A DNA stretch of 64,000 bases from contig MU004201.1 of assembly GCA_010093605.1 (NCBI GenBank), positions 62,001-126,000 of the forward strand, written 5' to 3'. Positions 23,019 to 64,000 of this stretch are shown here, one piece after another. Source of the DNA: Lophium mytilinum (Eukaryota). The notes under the pieces were generated by a model. The model was not told the DNA's origin. It saw only the letters and a program-made list of their open reading frames with translations, and did not search any database. Each line of letters starts with the position of its first letter. The first letter of the stretch is position 1. The position numbers and the translations under genes were made by a program.

Positions 23019-23233
23019 TGTTAGGCTTTATAAGGCCTTTTCTTTTATTTATTGCAGGACGGGCACGTAGATTATATGCTTTCGCGCCTCTTAGTATGCT
23101 AGTGCGTTAGCGCGCGCATAGCAGCCTACTTCTAGCTGCTGCACTTGCGTTTCTTTTCTCTCTTTATCTTATAACCTCTATAGTATAGTAATATAAACCT
23201 TACCTTTCTCTATATAGCCTACGAGTCTTTATA
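23019..23233. mobile_element. Isolated LTR, 215 bp, same family as 18231-18445 in inverted orientation, no TSD
   Basis: TGTTAGGC...CTTTATA aligns end to end with the reverse complement of 18231-18445; flanks GGCTA and CGCCC do not match. Confidence 0.85.
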
Positions 23234-26200
23234 CGCCCGCAATATTAAAACGGAGCGTAAAAATAAGTCTTTAGACTATAAGAATATTAGACTATATTAG
23301 ATTAAGAAAGTTATTAACTATAGCGCTATATATAAGCTTAAGCTTCTATAAGATATACTAGCTAAACGGGTCTAGCTAGTTCTCTTACCTTACTTATAAT
23401 ACCTCTACAACGCTTAACCGGTTAAAGGCTAATAATAACCCGAGCCGCCGCCTATTATAGTTATTAATAAAGAAGGATAAGAAAATGTAGAGTACCCTAT
23501 TTAGCACAGATTAAACGTAATAAAAGTAGAGGTAAAAGGTGTCCTATTACTAGCTAGTAGGCGTAGCCTTAAAGGCTATGCGGGCGTCGGCGTATAGGAC
23601 GCCGGCGTCCGGCTGGGCGTGCACGTGAACGTCCTGCACGTAAACACGTGCTGTACGCTAGAGCCTGCTATAGAACCGTAACAACTGCCCTAAATAATAA
23701 GATATTGTCGTCTTTAATAACTAGATATCTAAGCTACCCTCTATACCTAGGCTATCTTCTATGTCTAAGCCACCCTCTAATTTCTAAATAATAGCGTACT
23801 AAGATAATATAGACGATAAAGGCAATAGGGAAGAAGTCTAAACTTATGAAAGATAAGTCGTAAAAGACAACGGGTCCGTGGAAGAAGACGGATTCGTGGA
23901 AGTTGTACAAGATAGCGAGTTGTAAAGAAGAATAACTCTTAGAAGGCTGGTAAAGCTATAAAGGGCTATAAAGGCTTTATAGCCGGCCGCGATTAAGCCG
24001 CAGCAATTAGCTTGTAAGGAGCAATTAAGCCGTGGCGATTAGCTCGTAGATGAGCGATCGAGCCGTGGCGATCAGCTCGCTAAGGTCGTTGACGGGTTTA
24101 CGGAAGTTCTTGACGGGTTCGCGGAACTCAGCTAAGATGGAGGTTTCTGATAGACGACGGCGTACTAATAAACGGGGGCGTACTAATAAACGGGGGCGTA
24201 CGACGTTTAAGATATGCTTGTGCTAATAACGGCCCTAAAATAATAGATTTGCGGACGACTAGATGTTATAGACGGCCGTTAAAAACTAGCTATTTAGTAG
24301 GTGCGCCAGGTTATAGGTATTTATAAGGTCCTTATTAATATCCTCCTTCTAACGCCATTAATTATCTTCTAGCCTATATCCTTCCCACTTAACTAGATAC
24401 TCTATAAACAGCTTCTTTACGCGGCCTATCCGGCGGAGACGCCGGGCTACTAGGCGCTCAACCTTGTAGTAGGCGCTAGTCTTATTATTCCGGTCGTTTT
24501 TAATAGCGGCTAGCTTGGTCACCCTAGAAGTCTTATCGCGGACGTATAGGTCTTAGTTAGGCGAGCTTACAGGCTCTAGCTGCTCGACTAAGATAACGGG
24601 GTGTATTTTCCAGCTCTAGGGCAGGTCGACTTCGTACGCGTTTTCGCCAACCTTGCGCTTAATTACCCTTGGGCCTACATGCTATTGCCTAAACTTTCTA
24701 TATAGCCCTAGAATCTTAAAGCCCTTATAAAGCCGTATATATACTAGATCGCCGGGGTGGAGCTGTAGGGTCGCCCGCATTCTATTAAAGCGAAGCTTTA
24801 TCCTGGCGGCTGCAAATGCAAGAGCGTCGGCTGCTTCCTGTCTAGCTATATCTCGGGCGTCTAGAAAGCTTAATGCGGCTGGATTAGACTTAGCGGCTTG
24901 CGGGGGACGTGCAAGCTCTAACTCGGGAGCCTATACCGCTATGGACGCTCTTATAATTAATAACGGCCTAGAGGTTGCTTAGGCGCCGCCGTTCTTAACA
25001 GCTAGAGCATGGACGTGCTTAACGGCCGGAGGGGCGTGCTTAATATAGATGTTTGGCAAGCCTTTATTAAGGCGGAAGCCGTAGATAATTTTATTAGGGG
25101 ACTTGCCGGTGGATCTATTAATTGTGTTATTAAAAAGACGGCGTAGGGTAGTTAGAAACGCGGGCCAATCTGGGTTTCCTTGTAATAAGTAGAACCTTAG
25201 GGCTATTTCTATAGTCTAGTTTATATATTCCGACTGCCCGTTAGTATATAGGTGGTACGCTGTTAATATTAGAATTCTAGTTCCAAGACGCCTAAAGACC
25301 GCTCTCTAGAAGGAGCTAATAAACTTCCTATCGCGGTCTATGATAGTAGCGACTGGCACGCCCTAGTCTATTAGCAGCTTAAGAAATACCGGGGCCCAGT
25401 CTTCCGCATTGTATGTGTCCTTGCCGGCGCCTATTATAATACGCTTGGAGAGCTTCTAGGTAACTATAATTATCGCGTTGAACCTATTTAATTCTAGTAG
25501 ACCCACGACAAAATTAAGGAATATAGTGTAGAAAGGAATAGGCGGCGTCTAAACTAGAACAAGACCTCTATAGGGCTTGTATTGGGTGGTTTTATTAACG
25601 CGATAGATTGCATAGTAACGTAGGTAGCGCGTTAACTAGCGTGCTAGGTGCCGGATTTAATACGTGGCCCTTACGCGCTTATAGGTCCGCAAGAAGCCAG
25701 CGTGCGTTAGGATATAACAGTCTTTAAAAACGTCTCCTTCTAAGCTTTTCGCGACATAGAGACGTAAGCGCCCGTCGAGCGCGTTGCAGTAGTAGAGGAG
25801 GTCCTTGTGCAGTAAGAAGGGCACTCCAGGGGGTCTAGCAGCGGGCTGTTCCGTGGAGGACTCCGAGACTAGTAATTGAATTCCTGCCTAATGTTTATTG
25901 GTTTTGTAGGCAGCGATAAGGGCGTCCCGGAAGTCGTCCGCAAGCTCTATAATAGAGACGTTGAACGCCGCTTTGTAGGCTTTAGCGGTGTTAATATTAA
26001 AGGAGAGTTCCTCAAGCGTATTAGAGGTAGTATCCCCGGGCTGTACGTTTACTATAGGTAGTTGTAAGAGAGCGTCTGGCACTATATAAAGCCTACCGGG
26101 CTTATACTAGATGTCTAACTAGAACTGCAAGAGATATTAGGACGCCCGGACTAGGCGCATGTTAAGCTTGTCGGTCGCTAAGGTTGTAAGCAACAACGCC

Positions 26201-29200: not shown

Positions 29201-30099
29201 CGTGCAAGACTAATGGCGGCCGTGAAAGACGCGGGGGCGTCGCTAACGCCTTATTCGGCGGCTTTGCCGACAAGAGCCTATCTTAACGCTTACTTTGAAG
29301 GGGTAGGCGCTTACGTCTAAGAACTAGACGTTGCCGTCTACGACGTGTACGCCGGCGTTGTAATAGAAAGAGACGCAGATAAAAGAGACGTTAATAAAGG
29401 AGACGTTAATAAAGGAGAGAGGGTATTAAGCGGAAAGTAGATAGGGGTTTTCTAATAACATGGTTTCCCGTAAACCACGGGACTGCTTCCTTAGAACCTA
29501 TAGATCGGCAGTTGCCGGAAGCTGTTAACCGGTTCTAGGAAGTTAATAAAGGCTTCCTGGAAGTCGTTGTATACGAACGGTTTCCTGGAAGTTATCAACG
29601 ATGGCGGTTTCCTAGAAGTTGTAGAAGACGGCGATTTCCTAGAGGCCGTAGTCATTAATAGACTATTAATCGGCGCTCGGGACGTTCGCAGCTAATAACT
29701 TGTTTAGAGACGTAGATGTCGGCGAGCCTTATAATAAAGGCCTCGTAGATAAGTATATCTAGCTAGAAGCTGTAGCGGACGTAGGTCAATGAATTTGCGG
29801 AGCTGAAGCTAGAGACAACGAAGTCGACAACTATAGCGACCTCTTGCGGGTGTCTAAGATTCTTTAGGGGGACTGCAAATCTAGTGCTTGCGATAAGCAA
29901 GCTGGCGAGCTAATAAAGCTCTACTGGTATAGTACTAAGCTACTAAATAGCACAGTTTAAACGTGATGAAAGTGGAGGTAAAAGGTGTCCTATTACTAGC
30001 TAGCAGGCGTAGCCTTAAGGGCTACGCGGGCGTCGGCGTATACCGTATAGGGTTATTCTATGTATTAAACTCCGGGCTTGCACCAAGTCTACGTAATGC

Positions 30100-31570
30100 T
30101 CGTCCTAACTCTATGCTTAAAGTTAGTAGGGGTATGCCGGTTATTTAGTGGAGTAGATAGTTTAATAAGACTTGTAGCTTAAGAAGTAATATATAGTCTA
30201 AAATAACGTAAGATTTTATTAAGGTTATTATTGTGGTAGATGTTAGGTTGAAATCTTAGCAGCTGTTATTTCCGAGCAGAGCGTTATACCCGAGTAGAGC
30301 ATTCGGCGCGAGCATAGCGTTCCTATTAACGTTAACCTCGCCGCTAGAATGCACATTATACTTAACATTATACTTATCTTAATGTTATTTTTAACATGGA
30401 GCAGACTCTTAGCGTTAAGTTTAAGGATAAATAGAGTATTAAGTATAACAGCTGTTAACCTTAATAGCATTTTCACTACTTAGCATATAGTCATGTTGGA
30501 GCAAATATTTAGAGAAACTAATGCTCGATTTCCTAGCTAGCTTATCCTTTACCTGCATCCACCGCCCACCTCCAGCATTAATATGATTGCAATCTAAAGA
30601 ATTTAAAGTTAAAAATAGAGAATGTAAAGAACGTACCTACCTTACTACCTTTGTCTTATAGCCTACCTTTTAATTTCCTCCACTCTCTACTGCGCAGAGT
30701 ATTGCGTCGATAGGGCGGTGCGACTTGTAGATGTGGTGTACATTAAAGGGTTTAGTAGGATAGAATAGCGAGAATAATTCGGTTGGGTTTTTTAAAGTTT
30801 AAGGAGTGGTTACTCTACTATAAGGCGTGATGGTTCCTCTCTAGTCTATATTCCTTGTGTTAAAGTTAGTTTTAGTTACTTATATTAGAGGAGTTAGATG
30901 GGTATTTTATACCTAGTATGCGAAGAGTCGTGCTTCTAAGTATAGACGTGTCTAGAGTCTTTTAGGTTAAGTTCCAAGTTAAAGAGCGCTAGATATGGGG
31001 TAAGTACAGGACTTATAGATTATATACCGATTTAACTACTATGAAAGGGAACTATCTCCTAGCGATAACGCAAGTGGAGCTGGTCAAGATCCCCGCTTTG
31101 AAATTGGGCGATTAATATGCTATAACTCTTGTATAGCAGGACTAGTTAATGTAATGGTTGTTAGCTTTTGTGTTAAACACTACGTAGGTCTTCTAGATAA
31201 CTTACTGTAAGGCAATTTAAGGACTTGTATTCTATATCTATTACTATCTGGGATTCTTATTAGTCGATAAAAACATCGGCGAGATCGATGCCAACTTACG
31301 CCTATTCTTTTTAAAGTAGCGCGAGTGGTGTTAGATAGGTAGGGGTAGACTTATATATTGCGCTGTTCCTATAAATACATTTAATATTTATTAGTTAGCT
31401 TTTAACTTTTAATTTAACTCTTTGTGGGCGAATGGTTTATAAACAAGGACTTCAGCAACTAAGCGGAGGACATAGTTGGGCTAGGACAGGATAGAGATAA
31501 GGCGGAATGCAGCATTTAAGTAAGAGAGGGTTAAGAGCATTAATAATAACCCCCCATCTTAAGAAGCTCT
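30100..31570 (-). pseudogene. Intron-containing accessory gene of unknown function inside the DNA transposon (bounds approximate)
   Basis: Minus-strand GTACGT..TAG intron at ~30594-30636 and other intron-like segments between coding-like stretches (PTELFSLFYPTKPF.., CNHINAGGGRWMQVKD..). Confidence 0.4.
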
Positions 31571-33200
31571 ATAGGAACCACTAAGAGATATAAGAATATA
31601 AAAAGAACACTAAAAGAACGTAGAATAAAGCTAGAATAATGCGCAACACATTAAAGACACTATAGAACAGTTCCTGAAAGGAGAGAAGGTAGAAAGGGAA
31701 GAGAGTAAAGGGGTGCAGGAGAGCGGAGATGCTTAAGATATACCTGCAGTAATTTGTGCAATGCGTCGCGGCATCGCGATTTATATAGGGCGGTCGATTT
31801 TCTAAGGGTAAGGTTAGAAACTCGAAATTGCCTAATAAACTCGCGGTTTGATTCGGGGATCTAGAACAGCTGCTGCACCTATTGCATTTGGCCACTTTAA
31901 AATCTCTAAAGTGTCGATTGAAGCCATAGAAGTGTGCGGCGATAGTTATTTAGTTAGTAAGTTGTGTAGTTAAAAACTGTGTACTTTAGTCAACATACTA
32001 TAAACGGAGGTTAAAAAATAAGGCTTACTAAGATAGCTCTATCGCCGCCTTCCCCACCTTAACCATATGGTAGCGTACCCCGTATTTCCAACCTAGCCCG
32101 CCTAGTATTCCTATCCTAAGCCGCCGTTGCATGTCTAGACTAGCTGCTATCGCCCCTAGACTCTAGGGTATGTTTTCTAAGGCTGCGAATTGCGTGGTGT
32201 AACTGTCGTGGTCGTATAGGGGTAGGGAATAGCTAGGAATGCGTTAGTAATGTGGGAGGGGATAGAGAAGGGATAAAACTAAGCGGGATGCTCCTAGCAA
32301 ATGAACTAGTTAGAGGATGCTGCTAGGTTATAGGGGGTTTGTAATATGCATAGCTAGCAGACCTAGCACTCTAGTATAGTAGCTAGAAGCTCTTGCAGTT
32401 AGTATCTAGGGATCGTAGGGATAGGATCGATAGGATACGCTTGGGGATACTTAGAAAAGGGTATTAATCTAGAATGTAATGCTCCTAGGAATCTAGAATC
32501 CTGCAACTCGCCCTTTACGTTCTAGGCTTCTATAGTAGCCGTAGATAGATAGCGCGTTTAACTTAGAGTTGATTAGTAGTCTTATAGTGTTTGTAAGGAT
32601 ATAGATTGCTATAGTAGTAATAGTAGTGTAGGAGAAAGCTAGGAGTCGCAATAATGCCCGGTTGATTCTTTTAGCGAGAGCGTGCCGCAGCCTATTAGCC
32701 GCAGGCCGTAAAAATAATTTTATATTTAGACATTAGAAAAGCAACACTACTTCTATCTCTGTTTTGTGAGAATTAAAAGCATTATACGCGCTATCCTAAT
32801 AGCTACCCTTTGCGCTAAGGAACTATTACAAATGTACTTCCGTCTATAGTGTAAACTTATTACTAACTATTATAAGAATACTATCGCGAGAATATTCTAA
32901 GACTTCTCGGGTTAACTCTATGAGTTTGTTATACGAGTCTATATCTAGTAAGGCACTTGCGGGACCTAGTTAAACTCGCATAACTGTAAAAGCTCTCACT
33001 TAAAATATCTCTAAGACTTAACGACTACATATTAAGTAATGAGGTATAGTAAAACTTATAGTATTTATGCTTTTCCTATAAGGCGCTTAATTTCCCCTCT
33101 ATCCGCCCTAAGACCAGCCTCCTACCCCCTAAGGAACTATGCCCTACCCCCTGCCCGGCAGAAAATACATTTCCAACCCCCCTTACTAATGCCAGGCATC

Positions 33201-36200
33201 CTAAAGAAACTGAATACTATCCTAATCACAATACAGCAGCTGCTCCGGCTTGAAAAGCGGCGTAATAAAGACCTTCCGGATATCTATAGACGGAAGATCA
33301 ATAATGCGAAAGCCGGAAGATAAACGCAGAAGCGGCAAGTCGAGAATAGGATCTCTTTCGGCCTGGGGTTTAGTTGGAGTAATAATAACGAAAACCCGCT
33401 TTACAAAGTTAAGCTTATGGACGAAGATGTACTCCACGCGGCCGACCTGCCCATCTTTTGCCTTTATGAGATTTCCAATTCGAAAGGTAACGCGATATTC
33501 GGATAACCTAAGATTTTCAAGACTAGTATTAGCACGAAGACTCACAAGATTCAGGAATAGAGTTAAGGCATAGTGGCAGACTTACGGGTTAGTAAATGAA
33601 AGCCGCTTAACCTAAATAAACGCTATAGTTCCGAGCCGAACTAGATTAGGCAGTTTATAGTAGTCGTCGTAGGCCTTTTAAAGGAGCATAATAAACGGAT
33701 AGGTCGTGTCGAGCTTTCTAGGGCTAGGATATATATTAGGATTGCTGCTGCGGGCATCTTTCTTAATTTAATTATAAACGGTTGCAGCTTAATGGCCTTT
33801 ATCGCTTTTAATACTAAGGGGAGAATTATTATTAAGCTTAAGCTCATTTTGCTCTAATTTTGGCAAGATGCGATTGAATAAATTTAGACAACTTTCGTTT
33901 AGGCGCTTTAGCCGTAGAGTGTGAGCTGGGTATATATTCTTAACCACATCAAGAATCGCAAGGCGGGTCGCAATGCGAACGTTCTCTTGCATTAATAAAG
34001 TCTTACATATATTCTAGGAGTTAGTATATTAGATGTCGTTCTTAAAAGTCCTATATAAATTTTAGCCTAGTTTAACCTTAATGTGTAGCTCTAGATGTTA
34101 CTAACTTATAGACGTGCTCGCCGGTAAGAGTTATTACATTTCTAGGAGTAATATATTTATATGCTGTGTCCCACATATAAAGCTCTTAATAAACGTTTAG
34201 CAGCGAGAGCGCGTTTGTATTAAGTTGCAATTTCTTTATAACTTTAAGAACTTCCCTAAATTCATCTATATATAGATCGGCTTTATCTACTATACTTCTA
34301 GCTTGTAAGCTAGTAGCACTACTCGCGACGCTTAGTGTTGGGGTCGCAGCTCTTCTTTTACCTTTGCCTTTTCCTTTGCCTTGTCCCTTTTTTTTTCTTT
34401 TGGCCGGAGGTAAAGCTATAGCTGCACAGCGGTGCAGATCTTAAAAAGCTATTCTACCTTTCTATAGTATCTCGAACATGTTATTGCGTTGAGCATGGGT
34501 TATAGAAGGAGATACTACGGCGGCGTTACTCTGCGCCATAGCGATAAAGCACTTTGTAATTGCATCAACGGGCGGAATACTAAAAACCTTGCGGGCGGCC
34601 TTAAGGTACCTATCTTCTATAAACCGCTCCTTCAACCAACAGCGGAGGATAATGGGCGTGATAACGGTAATTTTAGCACACTCTAATATCTAATAGCTCT
34701 TAATGTAAGTCTTAGGATTCTATAATTAAGACTAGCCCGGAGGAAAGTTTTAGGCGCTTAGTTGTTTTATAAAACCTGTCTTTCCTGCCTTATTTAGGAG
34801 GCTCTTAAAAAGCATAGTTTAAGCGCGCTTTAAGATTCTAGCATATTTGGAATGAGCGGCGTCGGCAGGTCGGCTGCGGATAATGTCTAGAGCTGGAGCA
34901 ATTCTTATAAGAGGAGTCTGTTCTGCTGCCATACTAACTTGTTAAAAGAATTTAGTCCAAGCAGCCTTACTTTTAAGTATATTCCCCTGTTGCCTAAGAC
35001 TAATAACCTGGTAGTAATATTGCCCGTTTATAATAGTATTAAAAGAGAGATTAGTACGCTTAGATTTTAGTATAAGGCAGAATCTATATAAGTATTCTGC
35101 TGACACCGATATTAGACCCTTTATCTTTAGTAAACCGACTATATTACTAGTAAAGGCTATCGTCCAGGCGCATACAAATTTCTCCTGGCCATTAATAGTT
35201 ATTTTAATACTAGTATCTAGATTACCAAGATAGTGTAGAGCTCTAATAATATCTTTAAATGAGGTCCTATATGGACTAAGTGTAATAGGAAAGGAGTTAG
35301 TTTGCCGTGTACGCTCGCGAGCACTTAAGCTGGCGGGTGTAATATAGAATCCTAGCATTTAGCGGTATATATTGCGATAAAGACTAAACTTATTAATAAA
35401 ATATATATAAGGAATAGTAATTAATCGATTTAGGAAGCTATATTGGAAGTGCTTTCGACTATAATACTAAAGCTCCAATTTAGCCCGAGTTAGGGCTAAT
35501 AAATTCAACGCGCGGATGCTCCGACCTTGCACATTAACTACGTATTGCACGATGAAGGCCTCGGGGCGTATATAGTTATGCTAATCCCCAGCCGCCGCGT
35601 ATTGGTAGTCTAGGTAGACGGATGGCTCGTGGCTTTAGAGTTGTGCTTTACTAATAAGACAGCTACTACCCTTAAGAAGAAACAATTTAATTGCATGAAG
35701 GGGAGGATTTAGCATTATAAGATCGTCCTAAATAGCATCCATAATTTCGGCAGAGAGCTAATGCCGTCTCCCGACATTCTGGATAAGTATAACAACCTTA
35801 CTATACAGCACAGACTTTATAGAATGCGCATAATTACTACCTATATAAGTAATTTAACCTATATATACTTTATTTATTATACTATAGCGGCAGCTATTAG
35901 TAGAATAAGTGTAGTAGACAAAGTTAGATAGAAAAGCTAGTAGACTGTTCGGGTATTTTATAAACTCTCTAGATGTGCTCCGTATAGAAGAGCCCCAGGC
36001 AAGAGAGTAGTATAGCTCGGTTAGCTTATCCATAAAAAGCATTATACTAACATATAGCTTCTTAATAAAAGAAGAAGTAGATAGAAGCATCTTTATTAAG
36101 TGGCGGATATTAAAGAAGGCCATTGACTTAGTATCCTTTAATCCAGTTAGCAGTCGTGATTTATTAACCACTAGAGCCTGCTTCCGCAGTTTTAGGAGAG

Positions 36201-36981
36201 GGAGATAAGATTACGCGCCCGCCTTAAGTTTATCTAATGTTTTTAGGAGCGAATATAGCTGCTTAATGTTCCAGGTCATTATAAAGATCTCTCGCAGTAA
36301 TTGCTACTTCTTTCTTAAGAGCCCTACACTCTTAGCCTATAGCCTAAGTGCAATTGCTATATTGTCTTCTTTGCTGGTAGAAGTTAATATAGGATACTCT
36401 ATCTCCTCTAAGTAGTCGATTGTTGCGGAGCTTAACGTCCTCCGAGTAGCAGGGGGCGGAGGCATTAGAGACGAAGGGCCGGGAAGTTAGAATGGTCCTG
36501 GTTTATGTATCGATTCAACGACATAATCCTAGAATAGTTCCCTAGGATTGTCAAAATTAAAATCCTTAAAGTTCCCTAGATCTTAATTAACCTAGCTAAT
36601 TAGATTATTCTTAAATATAGCATGCTCCTTTAAACCTTCTAGTTAAGCATCTTTAAGTAGTAGCTCTTCCTCTCGAGTAGCTACTCTAAGTACCCGCTCG
36701 TATATCTAATCTGAGTTGTGCGTGTCTGGGAGCGTTGGGATAGCTTCTTCCCCGAGCAAAGCCGTAGGCCTTTCTCCGCCTTTGTCTATCTAGTCCTGCG
36801 TTTAAGATTTGGAGGCAGCATTGGATATATAGCTATCGTTCCCACCTAGGAAGGCATCTTTATATTTATCCACCTCTTTAACTCCTTCTTACTCCTCTTC
36901 TTTAGAAGATAATAACATAGATGAACTTTCTTAGATGCGGCGCTTCTTAGAGTGGCGAATAAAATCTATAGTGCGGGCCAT
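33201..36981 (-). pseudogene. RIPed DDE transposase, CMC/EnSpm/Plavaka-like, with at least one intron (34051-34105)
   Basis: Starts MARTIDFIRHSKKRR. Motifs FI(D).F(G)LYRN, AFT(GD)....G......(C)RFC and L(P)NV(H)..L(H)...Y.TP.N..TLTGEHV(H)KTFK; ends (W)DSIQFL*. Homologous to 58367-62072. Confidence 0.75.
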
Positions 36982-38438
36982 GGTGGATTATATAGACGCC
37001 GTAGTAAGAGCGCAAGGAGGAGAGAGTAAATACTAAGTAAGACTTGTTAGAATAAGCCCTATACTAGAAGAGAAGTTAGGGAATTATAAAAAAGAATAAA
37101 ACTTAAGTAAAATACTAAAAGATAGCATAAGATACTTACAAGACTACACAAACAACTATAAGAGTATAAGAAATGTAGTAGAATAGGTAGGAGAGTAGAA
37201 GGGAGTAAGTAAAGATATTGCGATAGAGGGAGAGATACTAGAGACAAAATGTAGCAAACGGATATAGTGCCGCAACATACCTTAAATTCTAGTTTTCAAA
37301 AGTTAAGTAAGATCTGACAGGCCGGGGAGCTAGAATGTGCGCGGCTCCTGTAGCATTTAGCTACTACTGCATCTTACTACTAATCGATTAATATATAGTA
37401 GTATCTGCTTTACCATCTTAATTAGCAGTTGTTGTTTATATAGGGAGTTGAATTCTTAAACCTATACCGGTTACTAACACCAATTAAATGCTAAGAAATA
37501 TCCATACTTAACTTTTAAGAGATTCTACTCTAAGGTCGCTACTAGCATTCTCCTAGGGCCGCCCCGTTAGCCCCCTACAGTCTAAGTATCCCAGCCTAGG
37601 AGCGCCACCCGTAGTCGTGCAAACGATAATCCTATTGCTACCTATGGAGTTTCTATCTTTAGGACTGCAATAGTAGAGGTCTAGAGAGGTCTAGGGAATA
37701 GGGGACATCCGGGGATGTCGTCTATAGAGTAGGGGAAGAGTACAGCCTCTTAAGATACTATAATAAAACAAGCCGGTTAGTATATACTATCTAGTTATAG
37801 AAGGATAGTAGAAGGGCTATAGAATGATAAGTAAGTATATACAGCATCTAGCTATAGCTGCGCATAGTCTAATAGCGCTTAGGAGGGACAACTAGGGATA
37901 GAGGGATAGGAGAAGGGAAGATATATAGAGATCTGTAAATTAATATATATACTTCTATAGCGCATAACTTAGGGACCTTGCAACTCGTCCTATAGCTCTT
38001 AGGCTTATTTAGAAGGCGTAGATAGATAGCGCGCTTAATTTAGGGCTAATTAGTAGTCTTATAGTTGTAGTGCGGTGTTATAGTAGTGTAGAAGGAGAGG
38101 GTATAGTAGTAAACGCGTGGGGACGCGCAAGTTGCGAAAATCCCTAAGGCATTTTTTTTAGAGTGCGGGGTAATTTTACATTAAATAGTAGCCTAGCGCG
38201 AAACCTTAAATAAGGTTTAACCTATCTAAAGCACGGCAGCTAGAGGTCCCTGTTAATAACAAATTACGTGCATCTCGCGACTTAATATTAGAGCCAGCCC
38301 CGCTATCTTCCCCAGCCTCTATATTTACTATTTACGATCGCCCTATCTCCCTAATTACTACCTACCTTAATCCTTTTCCTGTCTATTTTGCTTAGAGTAC
38401 CTATTTTATCCGCTATAAGCATTTCTAGTAAACTATAG

Positions 38439-39728
38439 ATGGCCGACTTAGTACGTTCTAACAGCCCCAGCACATTAGTAAATACTTATCTCGTTCTTAC
38501 CCAATCTATTCTATCTACTTGCGAGCTTATATTAAGTACAACACTTTAATAATGTTCTTGCTAATTACTTCTCTATACCTAGGCTGCCACGTCCTTCTCC
38601 TATCTAAACCTAGACTAGTCCCAACCCTCCTTAGGCCTATACTTTTACATAATAGCAACATCCACCGTAAATAGCAGTAGTACCTTGACCCCTATTAACC
38701 CCCTTCTTAACCCCACCCCTACCACTCCTCCCGGCGGTTAAGGCGATGGAGCAAACGGGTCTACGACAGGCGGCGACCTCCCCCTATTTACGCCATCCAG
38801 GAAGCGCAAGCATAAAAAGCCGCGCGCAAAGAAGGCTAACTTATCTACTTTACGGTCGGCTACCAGGAGCGAAGAGGACACTAAGCGCCCTGCCGATATC
38901 TTAGACTTTAACTGGGAGATACTTCGAGAATGCGAGCTACGCTAGCGAGCGTACTTTTTTAGATTCTTTTAAGAGAAAGATACTAAGGCTATGCTAAGGG
39001 CGGTGTTTGCAAGTAAGGGTATTGCAGATAAGGATATTAGTCGCGAATTATGGAATTTATGCATGTTAAAGCAGTAGGGTAATTATAATAACTGGAAGTC
39101 TAAAGAAACTATAAAGACGGCAAAAGTAAGTTACTTCTATTATTCTTATATACTCTATTCTAATAACTTACTAGAAACATGTTTGTGAAATGCTTAAACT
39201 AAATCCTTTGCTAAAACACATTACCACTGTTGCTGGTCTGCGGGCAGATTTTGTAAAGTCTACCTCCTCCAATGCAAATATCTACGAGTGCTTCAAGTTT
39301 ATCCAGAAACATCTTAACTTGGAGAAGTCACACATAGACGGCCTCTAGTTTGCGCAGCGTAAGTAAATTCTATCTATCTTCTTTTTTTATTCTTTGCTAA
39401 TATGCTTTTAGAAATATATAGTAATCTGTGCGTTAAGGTGAAGCAGACTCTAGACTAGGAAGACGAACTAAAAGAGACGTGTTTGGCTGCGGATAAATCT
39501 TCGCATGCCGAGCTTCTTACTTAGGTTAATTTAATGGCGTCCTTAAAATAGTACAATAATATTAACCCGCTTACACACTTCTCTATCTGCGCCGTAGAGT
39601 TGGTGAGATTACTAAAGTTACTAAGAGAGCTAAACCTGCAGCACTCTTACTAGACGAGGACCCGGACTATATATTTATCCCCCGCCCATCTACTACTAGA
39701 GCTGCTAGAGGCAACACCTAGCTTCTAG
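38439..39728 (+). pseudogene. Divergently oriented 4-exon accessory gene of the DNA transposon with a basic NLS-like motif
   Basis: ATGGCCGACTTA followed by a GTACGT intron; further GTAAGT..CTAAT..TAG introns at ~39126-39174 and ~39359-39410; encodes PSRKRKHKKPRAKK then a helical-looking region; RIP stops present. Confidence 0.6.
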
Positions 39729-41799
39729 CGTGCTTGCTTTTATTGTCGGATTGCAACGATCCCCGTTTCTCTCTATTATGTTTTTAAAGCCTGCATACTG
39801 CTCCGGTGTTTTCTGCAAGCGGCATACTATACTAGTAGTCTCTAATAGGTGGCTCTGTTTCTATAAGCTTCTCTCAATTGTTTTTTTAAGATTTCTCTTT
39901 CTTCCCTGTAAATGTACGACGATGGCTATATAATAATATAAAAGGAAGATATCTATAGAGGTTTATATATATATCTGCAGCATTTATAATAAGCGGGTAA
40001 ATAGGTAGTAGAGGTTAGTTTACGGCGGAGTTTTACTAAAGGCATGATACTCCGGATTTAAAAGTTTATAGATTTAGAGACATTACAAATCTACTATAGC
40101 AGACGTAATATCACCTTCTTCTTAACTACTACTTACGCCCCAAGTGCTTAGTATTAATAAAGCCACACGCAAAAGATATACACACCGCTACTTCTAAACT
40201 CTATGTGCTTGGGCCTTTAAAAAAAAAGAAAAAGCCAATTTTAATAAAAAGAACCGCGCACTGGGGTTATTTTTTTGGGCTTCCCACTTCCCGTCCCCAC
40301 ATAGGGGATTTAAATATGGATTTTTGATGCTCTATTATTTATTAGGCAGGCATATTTTAAACATATAAGCCCTGCTTCTACTAATTTTTATTTAGCAGGA
40401 GCAGACTCTATATAAAGCTTCTTGTAGCTTTTTTAAACCTAAGGAATAGTCTATTAGACTATTAGGGGATTTCAATATAGATTTCCCGGAGGCTTGTGTG
40501 CGGGCTGGAGGTCGGCTTAAAGATTTCAAAATATATACTTAAGTGCTACGTTGCAATACATACTAGGATATTAAATTACGCGGTTATCGCGGCGTTTCTA
40601 TTACAGCTATATCTTATTATAGATGTAACATAGACCCGCTATATATATCGGTGCACTAAATAGATTTCCAACTTTAATTTAGCGGTCGGATAGCTAGCCA
40701 GCTCGCTGTCCTATGCAAGCATTCTCTCTATATTAAGTTTAACCCAACTTTAGTTTTAAAACTACTAGAATTAAAGGCTAGCTACCTACTTAGCGCGAGC
40801 ATATTATTGTTAGATATTTTAAAAGCAATATATAATTGTTGTAAATCTAATTTTTAAACCGACTAAAGTTTCATGCGCAATGCTAAGCTGGAAGGACATC
40901 CCGCTGAATAGGCGGCGAGCAGACAGTTCTATCAAGCATAGCATTCGCGCATTAGCATACTTGTGGCGGCAGATGTAGTACTTAACAGAAGCATATGCAG
41001 GCATATATTCTAATAAAATAGACCTTTAAATTAAACAAAATTCTAAATAATTTTAAGTTAGGATGATATTATATTAAACTGGGAGCTATTATGTAGTTGG
41101 GGAATAGCATTACGCTAACTTAGTGTAAACAAGTAATTCGATATATAGGATACCCCGGGACGCTAGAACGCCGGCGTCCGGCTAGGCGTGCATGTGAACA
41201 TCCTGCACGTAAACACGTACTATACGCTAGAGCCTGCCATAGAACCATAACACTATTAACAACATTATTACTAGTAAATAGCGCCGGCGCGGTAGCTATT
41301 AGAAACTATAATATAAGCTGTAGTGGACTTATTATACTACACTAAGTAACTAGAAGAATTAGAGTTGTTTTAAGGGAGAAGGCGCTTAGAAACTAGTATA
41401 GCGTTTCTATTAGCTACGCCCGCGAGAAGATAGGCCCTATTAGGACTTTCTAAAACTACCGGAAAGTTGGTACTATAATAAGAACCCGGATTTAAATAAT
41501 AATAAGCACCCCGCTGCATGTGTAGTAGCCCTATAGCTAGAATTAATTAAAGTTAACTACTTAAAGATTATAACAACGTAAGCTATAAGGTTAGCTAGCT
41601 AAGTAAAGTAAGACTAAACTCTTTACTTTAGAATTAGATCCTCCGCTGCAAAGTTTCCGCTAAGTAGTTAGAGGAGGTTATTACCCAGTAACGCCGTAAG
41701 CACGCCGCCGTAAGATTTTAAGTTTATCTATAATTATAGGTTATAGTGCAGTGCGTACTAACAACTCTAGCTAAGTATACTAAAGTTATAAGGCTACTA

Positions 41800-54300: not shown

Positions 54301-54844
54301 CTACTACCTTCCACCCTAAGATAGATAGATAGACGGAAATTATAAATATAGGCCTAAAGCAGTACTTTAGAGCATACATTAACTACTAGCAGGATAACTA
54401 GTGTAACTTCCTCGCTGTTACTAAGTTTAAGGCTAACTTAGTAAAGAATACCTTTATAGGAGTAGCGCCCTTTATAGCTACTAAGGGCTATATTTCTAGT
54501 ACGGGCACCGCGCCAGCCGCGCAATTACCTAAGGACGCGAACGCAAACGCGAACACGCCGACGGTTCGTCTTATGAAACTTGCAGATAAATTCGTTACTA
54601 GAATAGATAAGTTGCGCGCGTTTCTCCGCACGGAAATTAAATAGGCCTAAGCTAAGCAAAAAGAATACGCTAATGCAGGATAATAACTAGCTTATACATA
54701 TTATCTAGGTAACTAAGTTATACTTAATAGACAGTTTATTAAAATAAACCGCCTAAATAGGAAACCTAACTTTAAAAAGCTCGGCCCCTTTAAGATTCTA
54801 GAAAGCTACAAAAACGGCAGCGCATATAAGCTTAAGCTACCGTA
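48378..54844 (+). mobile_element. Ty3/Gypsy retrotransposon D, RNase H region deleted, 3' part cut by the second large DNA transposon
   Basis: Starts TGTTATAGCC; gag with zinc-knuckle remnant (GRCFGCF ~51765), protease VLIDS (~52220), RT (LPFGLCNA ~53435), integrase (SDRGL.F ~54230), ends in GPFKIL..AYKLKLP. Confidence 0.88.
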
Positions 54845-55249
54845 CCGCAATTAGGGGGTAAGCGACGGGGAACTTCGGGCGGACTTGCATATATCTAAGT
54901 TAATAATAAAGCTTCCTAACTAGTATTATTGCAACGCGGAATGCAGATAAAGTATTTTTAATGTAAAGATAATCTTAGACAATTAGGCGTAGACTCGTAA
55001 AGTGCTAAGCTTAAAGAGACGCGTTGCTAATAATACTCTTAACGCGGGGAAAATCTTGCGCTCAAGTATGTCTTAAGTATTTCTCGATGCTAAGATTTAC
55101 CCCAATAAAAAACTTCTTTATGTTTTCTTTAAACACGCGATTTTCTTGAACCTTAGATTACCTTATAAAATAAAAGTAATACTAAGCGCAAGATTTACAT
55201 TTGAAAAAAGTAGCTTGTAGTTAAGGAGTTTTTAATTTATTAAAGGATG

Positions 55250-56750
55250 CTTAAGATTGTCTATAGGTTTTCCCTGGTCACACTTAAGTACCCGAGAAGT
55301 TACCCTTAAGAACAACGCCTTAACCCAAGTAGTCCCTTAGTATTAGGTAGAATACGCGCACTACAGCTTAGGTTATTGTATAATAATTATCTAGATTTAT
55401 ATAATTATAAGGCCACTATATACACTGCGCAATCCCCGGTTCTATTCTTATGCGCCTGCATATACTTCTCGCCTAGTCCCTAATGTTGGAATTATATACT
55501 TTTAAAAGCGCCTATCCCAGAATCCAATATCTACCTAGAGTCCTAATAGCCAGGTGGCTTCCTCGCCATGTCTTGTTGTCTAAACTGGGTATAGACATCT
55601 AACGAGCGCCCGCTATTCCGCAGCGTGACTGTAGCTGGCTAAGTACTTAGGTGGATAATGTCTAATCGGAAGAGTCTCTAGCTGGGATATTAGTATGCTG
55701 TAGACTATTGTAGAAGAAGTAGTTTATGGTTAGCAAAGTAGGAATCTAGGATAAGATTAACGTACCGCTAAGTATACAGCGCGACTCCCACTACAGGTCG
55801 TGCCTTGTATTGCAACAAATTCCTAACTAATAGTATCCCTAAGCTCTGCGTTCTCTCCATGTTCGTCCGTTAAGTTGCACGCGCGAAGGAGAAGAGTAGG
55901 CGAAGAAAGAGGGCGGGCGAAGGAGCGGAGAGCGTAGAGTTGCTAGTAGAGATTAATGGAGTTTAATCGGTATTGCGTTAGCTATAGTATATAAGAAGGG
56001 GCCTTAGTTTTAACTTACTACTTAGGTATAAGAAGTCTAATAATAGGAGGCGTCTCTTACTGCTAGACTATCGGCGACTAATACTCTCCTTACTTAGAAT
56101 TAGCTATATAAGGAATCTGCTTTCTAGCAAGAGGGGAGTTCCCTACTAACGTTCCTAACCATCCTCTTACTGTGTCTTACCAACCTAGCGTAGTTATAGC
56201 TAATGGGCCTGGTTTAGTTCTAGACGTAGAATGCTCGCGTTTTTATTATGTCGGCCTAGCACGTTCTTGTTAGCGGTTTTAGAACTAGGTGGAGGTGTTT
56301 ATAACATTCCTATAAGCCTCTAGCTGTAGCGAGGCTGCGGCATAGTAGTAATAGGGTAACCTGTTTATTATAGGCATTTCTATATATATTAGTAGCTAGA
56401 GTATCGGCGCCTACAGCATATACCTAAGTAATAGAAGGCGGGCTAAAACGCAACACTAGAAACTAACGCTCTAAACTATGTTAAAAGTTAGTTAGGCTGG
56501 CACTAGTAGATTAGCCTTGCGGCTGAAATGAATTAGTAAACGTACTAATATAAATTGGGAGGAGAACGGGCGCGTTTAAGTGCATATAGTGTTTTAAGAA
56601 TAAGAAATAAATAAGAGCGTAAATCTGAAACGGGTTTAGTACCTATAGCAGAATTGGAGCCACTCTAAAAAGATGCCGTGATGGATGCCCTGACGAATGC
56701 CGTAAGAGTCCTGCCTAAGAATTAGCAAAATTCCAATAAATAGGCCATAA
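55250..56750 (-). pseudogene. Intron-containing accessory gene of unknown function in the second DNA transposon (bounds approximate)
   Basis: Minus-strand GTACGT..GCTAAC introns at ~55725-55765 and ~56485-56545 separating coding-like segments. Confidence 0.4.
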
Positions 56751-58366
56751 TAGCCCTTTTTAAGAGGTAGTTTAACTTTAAAAAGAAACTCTATAAAAAT
56801 AATTTAGCGGAAACATTCTATCCTAAGATGTTAGTAGGCTTCTACGTAAGAAGAGATTAATTTTGGTACCTTAGTAAAAGTAGTGCAATTCTAAAAAAAT
56901 GCTTTAAAAACAGCCCCTAAAGGTTTCTAATTTTTTAGTATAGAGTAAAGGTGGGCGGCTTTAGGGAACTTGTTAAAAATGTTGCTTTTTTCGTCTAGGG
57001 GAAGGCCGGCGTTCTGTGACTATTTGCAATATGTTGAAAAAATTATTTCTAAGGCCGGCCCTATCGCTATTAATGCAGGGGCAGGCAGGGTTAGGTAGAG
57101 ACTCGCCGAAGGTGGGAACCATTTAGGTGGGCCATGTGTTGGATAGGTTGAGGTAAGATATAGCACTAATTAGTACCTGTCTAGCCTTTTATCTTACTTG
57201 TATCCCTAAAGACGAGGAGTAGATCTCCACTTTAAAACATATCTCTGTCCAGGTAAGGTGTGGCCGTAGGTCTGTGGGAGGGTGCTTAAGGTATAGGTAT
57301 AAAAGCATTATATTTAAGCTATCTCTACTTAGGTGTATTCCCTACCCCGCTCTCTATAGAAGTTCCCGTATACACGTAATCTATATATAAATATTTTACA
57401 ACTATCCTACAATATTATATAGTACTTCTTAGGATTATCCTTAATTAATCCTAAGATCCTATATAGTAATTTCTAGAATTAATCCCCGACCTATATAATA
57501 CATTCTATAATATTACATAGTAAATTTTAGAATTAATCCTAAGATTCTATATACTATTTTATGGGATTTTAATAGGGTGCAGTTTCTATAGAATAATACA
57601 GAGCAGTCACGTAACTATAGCCCTATACCTAAGGCATTTTTTAATATATTAGTTTCTAAAGGTCTCTCCCGGGTATTGCATTTACTATATATCTATAACC
57701 CTATGGCGCTCTACCCCCAAGTAAACAGCATCTAGCGTAGTTACTACTTAGATAGCTTATATCTCTTAGGAGCACTTTAACCGCGTTTACTCGGCGTCTA
57801 AAGTTGCAGGCACTTATCGCACTTTAGTTTCCTTAGATAAATATACTAGTTAAGGCTTTAGACTATATAGACTTAAAAAACGTCCTAGAGATAGATTGCT
57901 AACGCTTACTCCTCGCTCTATACTCTGTAGCATTCCTATAGTACCTAGTAGCGGCAGTAAAACCCCTAAGCAGAAGACATCCCCGTTCGCGCAAGGAGTC
58001 TAAGAGTAAAACCCCTAATGTAAAACCCCCTGGAGCAGAACCGCCTAGAGTAAAACCTTCTAGAGTAGAAGCCTCCGCATATAAGCTGCCGTATACCTGG
58101 CTATCTAGCCTAGGAATCCATATTTGAAAATTAGATATAGGGCTAAAACCTAAGTTAAGGCGGGCTAATAGGCGGCGCAACTTTCAAGCGCAAAACTATG
58201 GTGTCGTGATTCTAAGCGTCGGCTATAAGATTAGGTATTGCAAGTATACTTAGAGATGCATATAATTAAGAAGTAGGTTGTATTAGAACGCTTATAGAAG
58301 AGCTATATAAGAAGTTAAGTACTAGTAAGAAGGGGTATAGGTAGATGCAGCACTTGCAAACTAATA

Positions 58367-61300
58367 CTAGAAGAACTGCAGACTGTCCCACGGATAGAAG
58401 ATAATCACGCCGTTATTATATAATAGAGAAATAAAAAGTCGCTTCGCTTCTACTACCGGTAGCCCAATAATGCTCTGCTGGAGTGGATTTAGCAAAGAAA
58501 GAAGGGGTAAGTTAAGGATATAATTACGCTTAACTACTTGTTCCACCAACTACGTTATAAGTAAGAATATCCTATCTTAACCCCGGAGCTCGTGAGCAAA
58601 GATGCCGTTGATTTTGCCTAGCTTCCTCTCTCTGCCGACGGTATAATTTCCTAGTACAAGGTTAATTCGCTTCTCGGACGCCCTATGCATATAGAGTTAG
58701 TTTTAGAATAACTAGTAAAGAAAGATATATAGAGAAGCACTTATAGATCTATAAATGCTAATCTCTTAAACTACTAAAGATTGTACTAACTAAGTTTAAA
58801 TAAATTGTAAATTCTATATTTAATAGAGTACGCCTAGTAAGGAATTACTAAGAAAGGATTAGATGGATTAGCTTTCCTTAGGTCTGATATCCGTCCACCG
58901 TCCTTAGCGAGTTGAGCGCGGTCGATTCGGTGGTGAAGAAATGGGCTTAGATGCCACTAGTTAGCACGCATTCTTCCTTTAGACTATGTTGCTTCTAGAT
59001 TCTTTTTCTAAGTAAAACCTAGCTATTTAGATCGTGGTAGTATAGAGTTAAATAGGTCTGGATATATTCTATAAAGTTCCTGAACTATTCTAGTGCGGCT
59101 AGAATACTCCGCCTTAAATAAGCCGGCGAGAGTAAGCCTAGTAGTAAGGCAAAAATTCTTATAGATAAGTAGACCCTTAGAGCAGTTGCGCTTATTAGTT
59201 TAGTATACTATAGCCTTAAATTTGCCATGTTCGTCCTCGCCAGCAAAAGTTGTAATATTCGCCGGCACAGCAAAGTTGTAAGTAACTGCGTTATAGTGCA
59301 GCCTAGTATATTAATTTAGGCAACTACAAAACGCTAGCAGTGCCTTTGCTCGTGCCTTAGGATTCTTCTTCTTTAAATGTATTTTGGAGAGGTTGTTGTC
59401 TGGATTAAGAGGGGTAGAGGCCTTACTTTCTATATTGCTGTCGTCCTGAGACGATAATGCCTGTAAGGAGGCTATAGATACAGCTTATCCCCTTCCTTAC
59501 CCTCGGCCTTGCTAACTAGCCTTAGTTAGTTCGCTTATAATATTAGGGTATACGCTCTTTGCGGCGCATTTAAAGAGGCGTTGCTACGATTCTTGGCCTT
59601 TATAGATTGCGCGATTAATTTATGCCATATTAGAAGCGTGTATAGAAGGAGATAGTATTAAGGTAGAGCTTTAAGCCATCTAAGCGTACGCCTGTATAAT
59701 TGCGTTGCAGACCAAAAGATTTGCTAAGAGTGTAAAGGTAGAAGAGATAGCTATCTAGAAGTTATGCTTGATTCACTTTAGCCTTAGCTATTAGTAAAGG
59801 ATAAGGGGTGTAATAATAGATATACGCGCACACTCGCCCATTTAATAAGACTTAAGATGCTTTAAGGGTGATTAAAGACGGGACTAGCTAGTAGGGAGTT
59901 GTTAGAGTTGAAGCTGCCTAGTATATTCTTCCTTGCTATTCTTCGTAAGTATACACTTAAAGAGGAGAGACTGGGCCTATTTCGCAAGGCCAGTATATTT
60001 AGAATGTGCGGAATCTAAAGGTTGAGATTCAACAATATTAAGCGCTAGGGCTATCTAGCAGACTGCGGGTGCTGTATCTATAAAGCCTAATCCTTTATAG
60101 AGTTTCTCTCTTACTACTTATAAATGGACTCTTTTAATCTACTCTCTCAGCTAATAGTTTAATGGTGATACCGGCCGAATTAGATAATATTAAACTTAAG
60201 ATTATGCTGTTTATCTTTGTGTATAAGACACGAACTATAGAAATAGTTCGCCGTCGGCCCATGGATGCCCCGGTTCTTATTCTGCTTAGCTATATCTGTA
60301 GTAAAAACTATAGTAAAGGCATATAGAAATATACGCTGGCCGGTAATAGTAGTATATATGCCTTTATCTAGGCGCCGAAGATAATAGAGTGTGCCAATAA
60401 TATCTTCGTGCAATGCCCTAAAAGGGCCTAAAGTGATAGGGAGAATATTGGCATTTCTGGTTTACTTATAGGCGGGGAGACTAGTAAGTATCTAGTATAT
60501 GCTAAATATAGCTCTATGCATATTACAATACAGGCCAAATTCATCTATATATGTAATAAGAGGAAGGGATATTATTTAGCCACTAATAAACAACGATATA
60601 ATAAAATGCCGCCCGAAATGGGCGATCTCCAGCTTAGCAGGAATAGGGGGAGATAGGCTTAGGGGTCGTAGAGTGCTATCCGAGCATATTAGATTTCAAA
60701 CCATAAAGGATGTATTAGTACGGATTTAAGCGGGTAGATATATAATTCCTTTAATTTTAGGTGCTATATACCGGTAGTCTAAATAAATAGATAGTTCCTA
60801 GCTAATAATAGACACTTTAGGAATAAACTCCCCTTGCCTAAGAATAATAAAGAGTTCCTAAGATTGGATAGGAGTAATAACACTAAATACAAGGTCGGCG
60901 TGGTCCTCTGTAAGTTTAGATTGTTAAAGGGCCCGACAGATTATAAGCCTTACTAGGCTAGGTTTATCTAAAGTACTTTAAAAGTCCCGACTAATATAAT
61001 ATACTCGCCTAAGATGTTGCTGCAGATCCTAGTGGCAGCCACACTCGCTATTAGGGCATCTGTAATAGATAAAGTCTAAAGGTAGAATAGGTAAGCCATC
61101 TAGGTACCTCGCAAATTCCCTAGACGTGCTGCGTGCCGACGCACCCTATGCCGTAGAGTAGTAGCATTCTAAAGGGGCATCTATAAACTGCATAAATCCC
61201 TAGTAGACCTTCCTCCTTAGCTAATTAGATGCTATAAACTTTATTAGCATGTCCTCTATATTAAAGAAGACTATATCCTTAGACGGAGTCTTACTAGTTA

Positions 61301-62072
61301 GTAGCTAGAGCCTATCTAGCTTTAGGGTTTAGTGTCTCATGCAAATAAGGGGGAGTTATGACCTGGCTCAATCGCGGAGTTGCTCGATGCGAGCTGGGAG
61401 AGTATAGAGGGGGTTAAGGTTATAGAGACCTAGGATAAGTATTTAAAAGGTAGTATAGTACTTCTATAATAAGCTAATAGAGTTAAAGAGTAGGTATAGG
61501 GCGAAGTAGAAGAGATCTATATCCCCGCTCTTAATGTTGTATAGAAGTTCTCGCGATGCGTTAACTGCAGTAAATAAAGGGGGTATAGGAGGAGGAGGCA
61601 TAAGAGGAGGAGGAGGAAGCATACCTGCAGCAGTCGCTGCAGCAGGTATTTCGTTAGTATTAAGAGCATCTTTGGCCTCTAATGCCTCATCGGAAGCGGG
61701 GCTAGAGTTGGAGTCCTTATAATTAGAGATAAGTTTAGGGTGCATTATTTCTCTCTCTAACCGCTGGCTACTATTGTCTATGTTACTTGTAAGGTTAATA
61801 TCGGTAATAATAGCCTTTAGGCGTTTATTTAAATCCCCGCCTTGTAGCCCAGGTTCCTCCTTATATGCCGGCAGGTCCCCAGCCTTATTATCTTAGTCTC
61901 CTCCTGGGCTGCCGATCTAAGATTCTATTTGTTGTCTGCGCGTTCGTTCTTCCGCGCGGGCTTGTAAGTTGCGGTTAGTAGGAGGGAGGGTTCTATAGGG
62001 GCGCGACTGCAATACTTAAGGCTAAGAAGGTTTAGATATAGGACTCTAAAGAGGGCGCTTTTATCGGGGCAT
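58367..62072 (-). pseudogene. RIPed DDE transposase homologous to 33201-36981
   Basis: Starts MPR(Q)KRPL. Motifs TYIDEFGLY.N, FTTDIAKQ...G..GPTANYF(C)..C and (RP)N.(H)T(G)LH....FAVPANITTFAGEDEHGKFK; ends WDSLQFF*. Confidence 0.75.
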
Positions 62073-62390
62073 TGATAAACTAAGCAAGGCAGGATTTAGC
62101 TTTAGCATAATTGTTCTTAATAAGAGGGATTAGTATAAAGAGTAGAATTCTTTACGGCGAAGAGTACTTACGAGAGGCTAGTATATGGGCAGCTGCTAAG
62201 GCTATAGTATTTAGTGATAGAGTAAACACGCAAACGCGTCTTAGTGTTTAGCGGGGTCTTTAGAGCGGGGACTTAGCATTACATATATAATGCTAAAAAT
62301 TTACAATATTAATTTAGAGTCTTAAAAAAATATCTTTTTACTAAGGTCCTAATATAGAGCGCTTAAATATAATGTTTTTAAAATGCTCTA

Positions 62391-62770
62391 ATCTAAAGTG
62401 CCTAGAAATTAGATAGCTATAATAGCATGATCTAAAGTGCCTAGAAATTAGATAGCTATAACAGCCTGATCTAAAGTGCCTAGAAATTGGATAGCTATAA
62501 CGACCTAATTTAGAGTGTCTAGAAATTAGATAGCTATAACGACCTAATTTAGAGTATCTGGAAATTGGATAGCTACAATGACCTGATTTAAAGTGGTTGG
62601 AAATTAGATAGCTATAACAACCTAATTTGAAGTAGTTGGAAATTTAATAGCCCAAACAACCTAATTGAAAGTGGTTGGAATTTATATAGCAAAAAGAGTC
62701 TAATTTAAAGTAGTTATAAATTGTATAGCGAGCATAGGCTAATTTAGGGGGTGTAGAAATTATATAGGGA
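62391..62770. repeat. 39-bp tandem array, about 10 copies (ATCTAAAGTGCCTAGAAATTAGATAGCTATAACAGCCTG)
   Basis: Head-to-tail units with no spacers, diverging progressively from left to right. Confidence 0.92.
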
Positions 62771-63349
62771 AAAAGTTCTAAAAACGCGCTGCCTGTAAAT
62801 TAAAGGTCTAAGATTATATTAGATAGAAGGTTACTTAGATATATAGGGATATATTTATGTAACATATATTTAATATAACTTTAGATGTTTTATACTATCT
62901 TATCCTACTCTACTTAACTTTTTACCTACTCTAATCCCCACCCTAGGGGGTTTTATCTTAAGTAACCTTATGTGTTCCTGTCTTAGATTATATAAGCTTA
63001 TCGCTTAAGAAGTGGCCGGAAGTCTCTGTTATGTAAGTATTATGTAACATCGCCTTACCGTCTTAACTATGTTCCCAAGTATAATGCTAACTATAATCTC
63101 TACTACCTAGGTATGCTAAGATATATATAATATGTTATAGCAATATTAGCTATATCCTAGAAATATTCCCTAAATCGGGACCATTTTCAAAATAAATGTA
63201 AGGTTCCTTCGGAAGGTTCCGTATTATCTAACCCCGCTTATTCCTAATTGCCTACTCTAGATCCCGACCCCTAACTTACTAACTACCTCTCTACTATTAA
63301 GCATTACAACTTATCTTCTATCTTAACCTATTCTGCTACTATTAGACAG

Positions 63350-64000
63350 CCTATTGTATAGGCTAGCCAGTAAGGCGGCTTACGCGTCTCTTGCCTTAAT
63401 TACTTTACTTTTAGCGCCTGTTGCCGCTTACTACGCCTTCTATAATTGCTTCTATCGTGAATGGCGAGGCATCTACTTCTCCTTAGCCTCCCGCGTCTCT
63501 ATCTAAGCGCAAGGGCGATAGTATATTACTGCTTATAAGAATCTAACTTCGACATTTAAAGAACTCTACTAACTCTTCTAGCCCTTGCCTAAGAGGTCTA
63601 CCCGGGCTAAATCGGCGCCTAAGACTACTAAAGCTCCTAAAGCTCCTAAGGCCCCTAAGGCTCTGAAGGCTCTAAAGGCCCCTAAGACTCCTAAGGGCCC
63701 GAAGACCCCGAAGCAAAGCCTTACAATAATAACTTCTAAGTCCTTAAAGGCGGTGTCGCCCTCTAAACCTAGCACCGTAGATCCTAAATTATAAACTATT
63801 GCGGGGGGTTTAACTAGAGAAAGCTTAGTCGATGGGCAGTCTCCCCTAGCTAAGTAGGTTCCGATGGATCCGGTCTTGCACGCGTCTGCCACGACGTTAG
63901 GTGCCACGGATCTAAATAGGGATGCTAGTGCGGATAGTAATAATTACAGCGAAGATAAAGAGAACAACGTCGAGAATAAGGAGGATAATAAGGGAGAGAG
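63350..64000 (+). pseudogene. Start of a divergent accessory gene with Lys/Pro-rich (KAP)n repeats followed by an acidic stretch (start approximate)
   Basis: PKRSTRAKSAPKTTKAPKAPKAPKALKALKAPKTPKGPKTPK, then D/E-rich codons; positionally equivalent to 38439-39728. Confidence 0.45.

Follow-up and report, generated by a model that had tools for sequence, protein, structure and literature searches.

The RAG1, ProtoRAG and Transib systems generate 5-bp target-site duplications and have RAG2 as a partner, and the CACTA/EnSpm elements have a two-gene design that combines a transposase with a second factor. ESTA (EnSpm-like transposons with TA duplications) are described as having a transposase that is RAG1-like by HHpred, with non-deletion entries of ~6.6-14.3 kb and TET/JBP among their gene content (Kojima 2025, PMC12730594). 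Of the ESTA entries listed (83 of 88 term matches were tallied), 79 of 79 begin with CAC and are labelled as rust or as one ‘AB’ species. The same source gives TGT..ACA termini for PlavakaA, CATCA..TGATG for PlavakaB, and CAC ends with a 3-bp duplication for fungal EnSpm. Moreover, Tuber Plavaka have CATAC termini (PMC12581995), red-algal Plavaka carry three accessory genes (10.1101/2025.02.11.637652), and the fungal CACTA/Mirage/Chapaev (CMC) elements in Repbase come from Basidiomycota and Mucorales only (PMC5751038). Here we describe an 11.1-kb element in a 64-kb stretch of Lophium mytilinum DNA (hereafter the window, positions 62001-126000 of the contig labelled C21, in an assembly of 43.4 Mb and 49 contigs). 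At a probability of roughly 80%, we consider it a formerly autonomous two-gene cut-and-paste transposon of the CACTA/Mirage/Chapaev/Transib (CMCT) clade, which represents an ascomycete lineage distinct from Plavaka in the strict sense.

The whole window shows a dinucleotide bias typical of repeat-induced point mutation (RIP), and its longest open reading frame (ORF) does not exceed 212 aa. The element is inserted into a long terminal repeat (LTR) of a Ty3/Gypsy chromovirus with reverse transcriptase, RNase H, SH3 and chromo domains, and is bounded by terminal inverted repeats (TIRs):

23497..23683, minus strand: intact host LTR, the empty-site reference for the insertion
29943..30042, minus strand: first half of the split LTR, 91% identical to the intact LTR, ending in the left TA (30041-30042)
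30043..30112, plus strand: left TIR, beginning with CCGTA
41094..41163, minus strand: right TIR, inward reading GCGTC
41164..41252, minus strand: second half of the split LTR, 91% identical to the intact LTR, starting with the right TA (41164-41165)

After removal of one TA, the two LTR halves align without a gap to the intact LTR over 187 nt, with 14 transitions and 3 transversions, so the element spans exactly 30043-41163 (11,121 bp) and the TA was duplicated. The exact ends that an initial annotation of this DNA had derived from the split LTR are therefore correct, as are its ~70-bp imperfect TIRs, which share 43 of 70 bases in a gap-free alignment with degenerate outermost bases. Among 127,860 window positions, the TIR score was matched only at the TIR's own end and at the far end. 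The genome was probed with DNA from each end, from the transposase gene and from the left interior, and was scanned with a TIR pattern; among the best candidates, which were scored, there was no second copy of the exact family. In a search of sequencing runs, the DNA was listed for the possible source sample only, and for no RNA dataset. The RIP composite index of the element is 0.78, compared to 1.6 in the retrotransposon flanks, which fits a later arrival or fewer rounds of RIP. Altogether, the element is a real, single-copy insertion that has been killed by RIP.

The transposase gene of ~3.8 kb predicted in the initial annotation was located on the minus strand, with the following features:

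33201..36981, minus strand: RIP-inactivated DDE transposase pseudogene, 3.8 kb, with a RAG1/Transib-like predicted fold
36981-34106, minus strand: exon 1, followed by an intron at 34105-34051; a possible extra intron lies near 33585-33508
35480..35975, minus strand: approximate BAH domain region, N-terminal to the first catalytic Asp (sub-profile match, E 1.4e-8)
33214..33500, minus strand: conserved C-terminal β-rich domain with a weak PWWP/Tudor-like match

The first 956 codons contain 30 stops, every one of which is TAA or TAG. In alignment columns with at least 80% conservation among homologues, the window transposase agrees at 66 residues and differs at 41, and 37 of these differences are explained by C>T or G>A changes alone; the reverse change fits none, and four fit neither. 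The stops and the bias of these differences indicate that the copy was destroyed by RIP. The order of the D..D..CxxC..H..E motifs proposed in the initial annotation is intact, with both Asp residues, one Cys and two His lost through G>A changes.

Pfam and PDB sequence searches with the window transposase itself gave nothing informative. Homologues were found at 26-38% identity, with Thermomyces, Flavoplaca, Alternaria, Trichoderma and Morchella among the named sources, and a three-sequence profile matched 36 proteins in one library and 2,473 clusters in another, 663 of them at E<=1e-30. In 107 homologues of at least 780 aa, the residues Asp488, Asp570, Cys589, Cys592, His666, His880, His884 and Glu904 (numbering of homologue P0004) are 99-100% conserved where aligned, a motif set that is the CMCT signature (PMC12730594). 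Structural similarity search with the predicted model of P0004 revealed RAG1/ProtoRAG/Transib as the best matches of the catalytic core (PDB 6cij, 3jbw, 6b40 and 6pqn) over ~470 residues, in addition to a BAH fold match at residues ~290-460. A second BAH domain at the C-terminus is unsupported, with a profile-profile probability below 1%. Compared to the RAG1, ProtoRAG and Transib systems with their 5-bp duplication and RAG2, the lineage described here has a 2-bp duplication, a BAH insert and a partner gene, ORF2, predicted to be all-helical.

38439..~39725, plus strand: ORF2 pseudogene, divergent from the transposase, with introns at 39126-39174 and 39359-39411

ORF2 is the only non-transposase gene in the element that has both homologues and a coding signal, so that the about four other genes of the initial annotation were not confirmed. 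It evolves faster than the transposase, with 15-40% identity among relatives. At metagenomic loci, ORF2 is divergent from the transposase in nine cases, in tandem in ten and downstream in one. In a tree restricted to family members, ORF2 is retained in both the Morchella-like clade and the other one; that the five copies of this genome group together in this tree is possibly an artefact of RIP composition and was left unused. ORF2 is a conserved partner that recurs throughout the family and is not cargo, and the ‘set of accessory genes’ of the initial annotation is unsupported, as none of the others proved demonstrable as a gene. A complete relative of 4.9 kb (L078:88-5002), with TIRs and a TA duplication, has no detectable ORF2 and represents a natural one-gene version.

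ORF2 relatives were modelled as an all-helical domain, the best fold match of which is the homeo-Prospero domain (PDB 1mij, 1xpx and 2lmd). At 8-9% identity and without Pfam or sequence support, this resemblance may reflect a common helical arrangement, and Foldseek gave no match to the ORF2 model at E<=0.001. Pfam and PDB sequence searches with ORF2 were uninformative and matched no enzyme family. In addition, exon 1 of the window ORF2 identified none of 127 candidates as a homologue query, and the ESM Atlas, queried with two intact ORF2 pieces, returned no usable match.

The genome contains four further transposase relics, and both ends were located for three of them. These and two short related elements are:

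54840..64000 of the window, continuing to C21:128088: sister element, a separate insertion of 11,249 bp with ~80-bp TIRs and a TA duplication
C10:317582-336545: relative on C10 with a TG duplication, 18,964 bp together with the LTR element nested in it
C12: relative of 12.6 kb with a TA duplication
C11:473707-474562 and C19:1334153-1335002 (L029 and L030): non-coding elements of ~850 bp with the sister family's TIR and a TA duplication

The sister element has the same layout, with a transposase and a divergent ORF2, and is inserted in a Gypsy pol gene. Between its two genes lies a 39-bp tandem array (62303-62770) that the C10 and C22 copies share. Nested insertions have apparently stretched the C22 copy of the sister family (C22:454771-531468) over ~77 kb, and its left end is ambiguous by one base. 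L029 and L030 are 78% alike over most of their length, and one of them shares ~110 bp with the intergenic region of the C12 element.

A metagenome scan yielded 75 loci, and both TIRs were located in six of the 26 longer loci examined: L065 (7,852 bp, beginning with CCGTA), L078 (4,915 bp), L084 (8,673 bp), L095 (8,787 bp), L102 (9,086 bp) and L109 (9,428 bp), of which L065, L084 and L109 are intact elements. All six are un-RIPed, and five have TA on both sides; L102, whose site is that of L095, is flanked by TA and CA. Both ends were thus located for 12 insertions (this one, five others of this genome and six metagenomic), ten of which, this one included, have TA on both flanks. The 11 others all start with C, and the termini in the lineage are CCGTA, CCTTA, CTGTA, CTATA, CAATA and CCATG. 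As TA flanks occur in un-RIPed relatives, TA is the usual target of the family and not a RIP artefact. The 2-bp TA duplication of the initial annotation thus stands, whereas its suggestion of a RIPed CA/TG is unneeded, though one relative in the same genome has TG. The flanks are un-RIPed at four of the six own-genome insertions and RIP-damaged at two, so strict heterochromatin targeting is unsupported.

Other metagenomic loci depart from this organization. L046 and L047 (10001-12830) have a transposase homologue on long contigs with no TIRs or ORF2 detected within 8-10 kb, and are possibly domesticated or truncated. At L080 and L087, short GC-rich repeats form long inverted arrays on either side of the transposase, resembling foldback ends.

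Roughly 5 kb of the element falls outside the transposase and ORF2, and intron-like signals are present there:

30113..33200: region downstream of the transposase, where decayed ORFs may lie, none of them confirmed as a gene
32502..32617: copy 1 of an internal duplication, 83% identical to copy 2 over 87 nt; a weaker similarity with gaps extends over ~300 nt
37979..38094: copy 2 of the internal duplication, located between the two divergent genes

The internal duplication may correspond to duplicated gene starts or to a regulatory motif. RIP-invariant coding scores over 30600-33200 stay under the 95% null, save one scoring window at 32893, and over 37000-38400 one scoring window lies between the 95% and 99% nulls. 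A Pfam scan of 22 frames and exons of the element, which left out the minus frames of 32600-33200 and had its one read of exon 2 out of frame, found neither a tyrosine recombinase nor any Pfam family outside transposase exon 1. Outside the transposase, tblastx and blastp detected nothing that the element has in common with either the sister family or metagenomic loci, which is weak evidence because the same searches missed ORF2 as well.

In its conserved catalytic motifs, RAG1/Transib-like predicted fold, TIRs and a duplication within the 2-5 bp range, the element has the features of CMCT transposons, as the initial annotation had recognized in assigning it to the CACTA/Mirage/Chapaev group. 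The 5'-CA..TG-3' termini found in most cases in this clade are absent; the element begins with CC, and CA occurs at one of the 12 insertions (L109). Similar to CACTA/EnSpm, the lineage has a two-gene design, and most of its termini have a C at position 1 followed by TA at positions 4-5, as CACTA does. The lineage does not fit CACTA/EnSpm itself, given no CAC ends, no 3-bp duplication, and no match to Transposase_21 or another CACTA Pfam family in the homologues scanned. Despite the TA duplication, it does not fit Tc1/mariner either, as no such Pfam family was matched and the motifs and fold are RAG1-like. Consistent with the view of the initial annotation that a tyrosine-recombinase captain is absent, no DUF3435 was found in the 22 reads scanned against Pfam, and the DDE transposase and TIRs likewise exclude a Starship.

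Two described ascomycete systems invite comparison. Styx is also a multi-ORF TIR element of an ascomycete, ~8 kb long, with an IS3EU-related transposase, a 6-bp duplication and a 36-bp TIR (PMC10853768), and is ruled out by duplication length and transposase type. ToxTA, of 14 kb, has 74-bp TIRs and a TA duplication, its mobilising transposase being unknown (PMC12506042, PMC6737239), and these sources describe no transposase of the present kind in it. The Leptosphaeria families DTx_Valwe (1,793 bp) and DTx_Olwe (866 bp) are given in a table without sequences. In the literature searched, which comprised top matches and extended neither to subscription papers and Iyer et al. 2014 nor to Repbase and Dfam, we found no account of this lineage, and none of a fungal transposase with a BAH domain or of a transposon protein resembling Prospero. 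The lineage is without a name in the papers searched. It is poorly described, as the initial annotation held, and widespread among ascomycetes.

That the lineage is an ascomycete branch of ESTA, and hence a new member of that recently named group, is a possibility we entertain only tentatively. ESTA is the closest analogue, with a TA duplication, a RAG1-like DDE transposase carrying C(2)C and H(3-4)H, and a similar size. However, the CAC start and the rust or ‘AB’ labels of the listed ESTA entries contrast with an ascomycete lineage in which CAC was seen at none of the 12 insertions; the two are set apart here by termini and host labels. The view of the initial annotation, in which a large element of Plavaka type carries some four accessory genes as cargo, seems quite improbable. 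It could draw on the ~5 kb outside the two genes, on the intron-like signals there, on the internal duplication as a possible mark of two paralogous gene starts, and on the accessory genes of red-algal Plavaka, but those regions have no Pfam family, no match in relatives and almost no coding signal. As to Plavaka itself, the lineage shares the CMCT motifs, a 2-bp duplication (varied at 2-3 bp in Plavaka) and a weak overlap with the Plavaka profile PF18759 around the second Asp and CxxC. In two sets of intact homologues that have two proteins in common, this profile matches 2 of 33 and 8 of 45, over profile positions 187-323 of 325 only, and no more than two of the 45 reach the curated cut-off, both barely. 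PF18759 misses the window transposase yet finds 16 RIP-damaged places elsewhere in this genome, none at loci of this lineage, and the family profile matches none of the 12 of these Plavaka loci that were compared. Moreover, the termini of the lineage match none of TGT, CATCA and CATAC, and the label Plavaka-type is unsupported in its strict sense.

A further alternative concerns ORF2, which could be an anti-silencing or regulatory passenger that aids persistence of the element, instead of a cofactor that binds its ends. The variable orientation of ORF2, its absence from L078 and its faster evolution would all suit a passenger. Nevertheless, we regard this as doubtful, because ORF2 is kept across both clades of the tree, matches no enzyme family and has a DNA-binding domain as its best fold match.

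For the favoured two-gene CMCT transposon, we propose the following mechanism, by analogy with RAG1/Transib chemistry. The DDE transposase, which has an RNase H fold and a zinc site like that of RAG1/Transib, formed by CxxC and His residues, would bind the ~70-bp TIRs, excise the element and insert it at a 2-nt staggered cut, usually at TA. ORF2 would be the other factor that the element encodes, most likely a helical protein that binds DNA in a sequence-specific manner. Second-factor roles are played by TnpA in CACTA and by a Myb protein in Harbinger, and ORF2 might similarly recognise the ends or regulate the transposase. Through its predicted BAH insert, the transposase probably makes contact with nucleosomes, either where the element leaves or where it inserts. 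The window copy entered the LTR of a Gypsy element and was later destroyed by RIP.

Elsewhere in the window, a 211-nt inverted pair (85%) at 18233-23231 surrounds a RIP-damaged relic of a fungal rhodopsin-domain gene (PF20684, E 1e-24) and may represent a non-autonomous TIR element that captured a gene of its host. Also present in the left part are an 18-nt tandem array of eight copies (9866-10063) and a 230-nt direct repeat pair of 75% identity (4910-6413).

The copy in the window is dead and contributes little besides its exact ends. The lineage has hundreds of divergent ascomycete members, most of them missed by Pfam, compared to the Repbase list of fungal CMC elements from Basidiomycota and Mucorales (PMC5751038). 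With defined ends, a target and two genes, annotators could stop labelling such genes as hypothetical proteins of the host. A bolder proposal, which we consider unlikely, is a separate two-component CMCT lineage across filamentous ascomycetes whose RAG1-like transposase has its own BAH histone reader and depends on a partner with true homology to the homeo-Prospero DNA-binding domain; if true, transposon proteins would be tied to the Prospero/PROX1 fold. Under this proposal, such enzymes could also be the putative missing mobiliser of TA-duplicating passenger elements such as ToxTA. The combination of a RAG1-like transposase, a predicted BAH domain within it and a dedicated partner offers a testable model for chromatin contact and cofactor gain.

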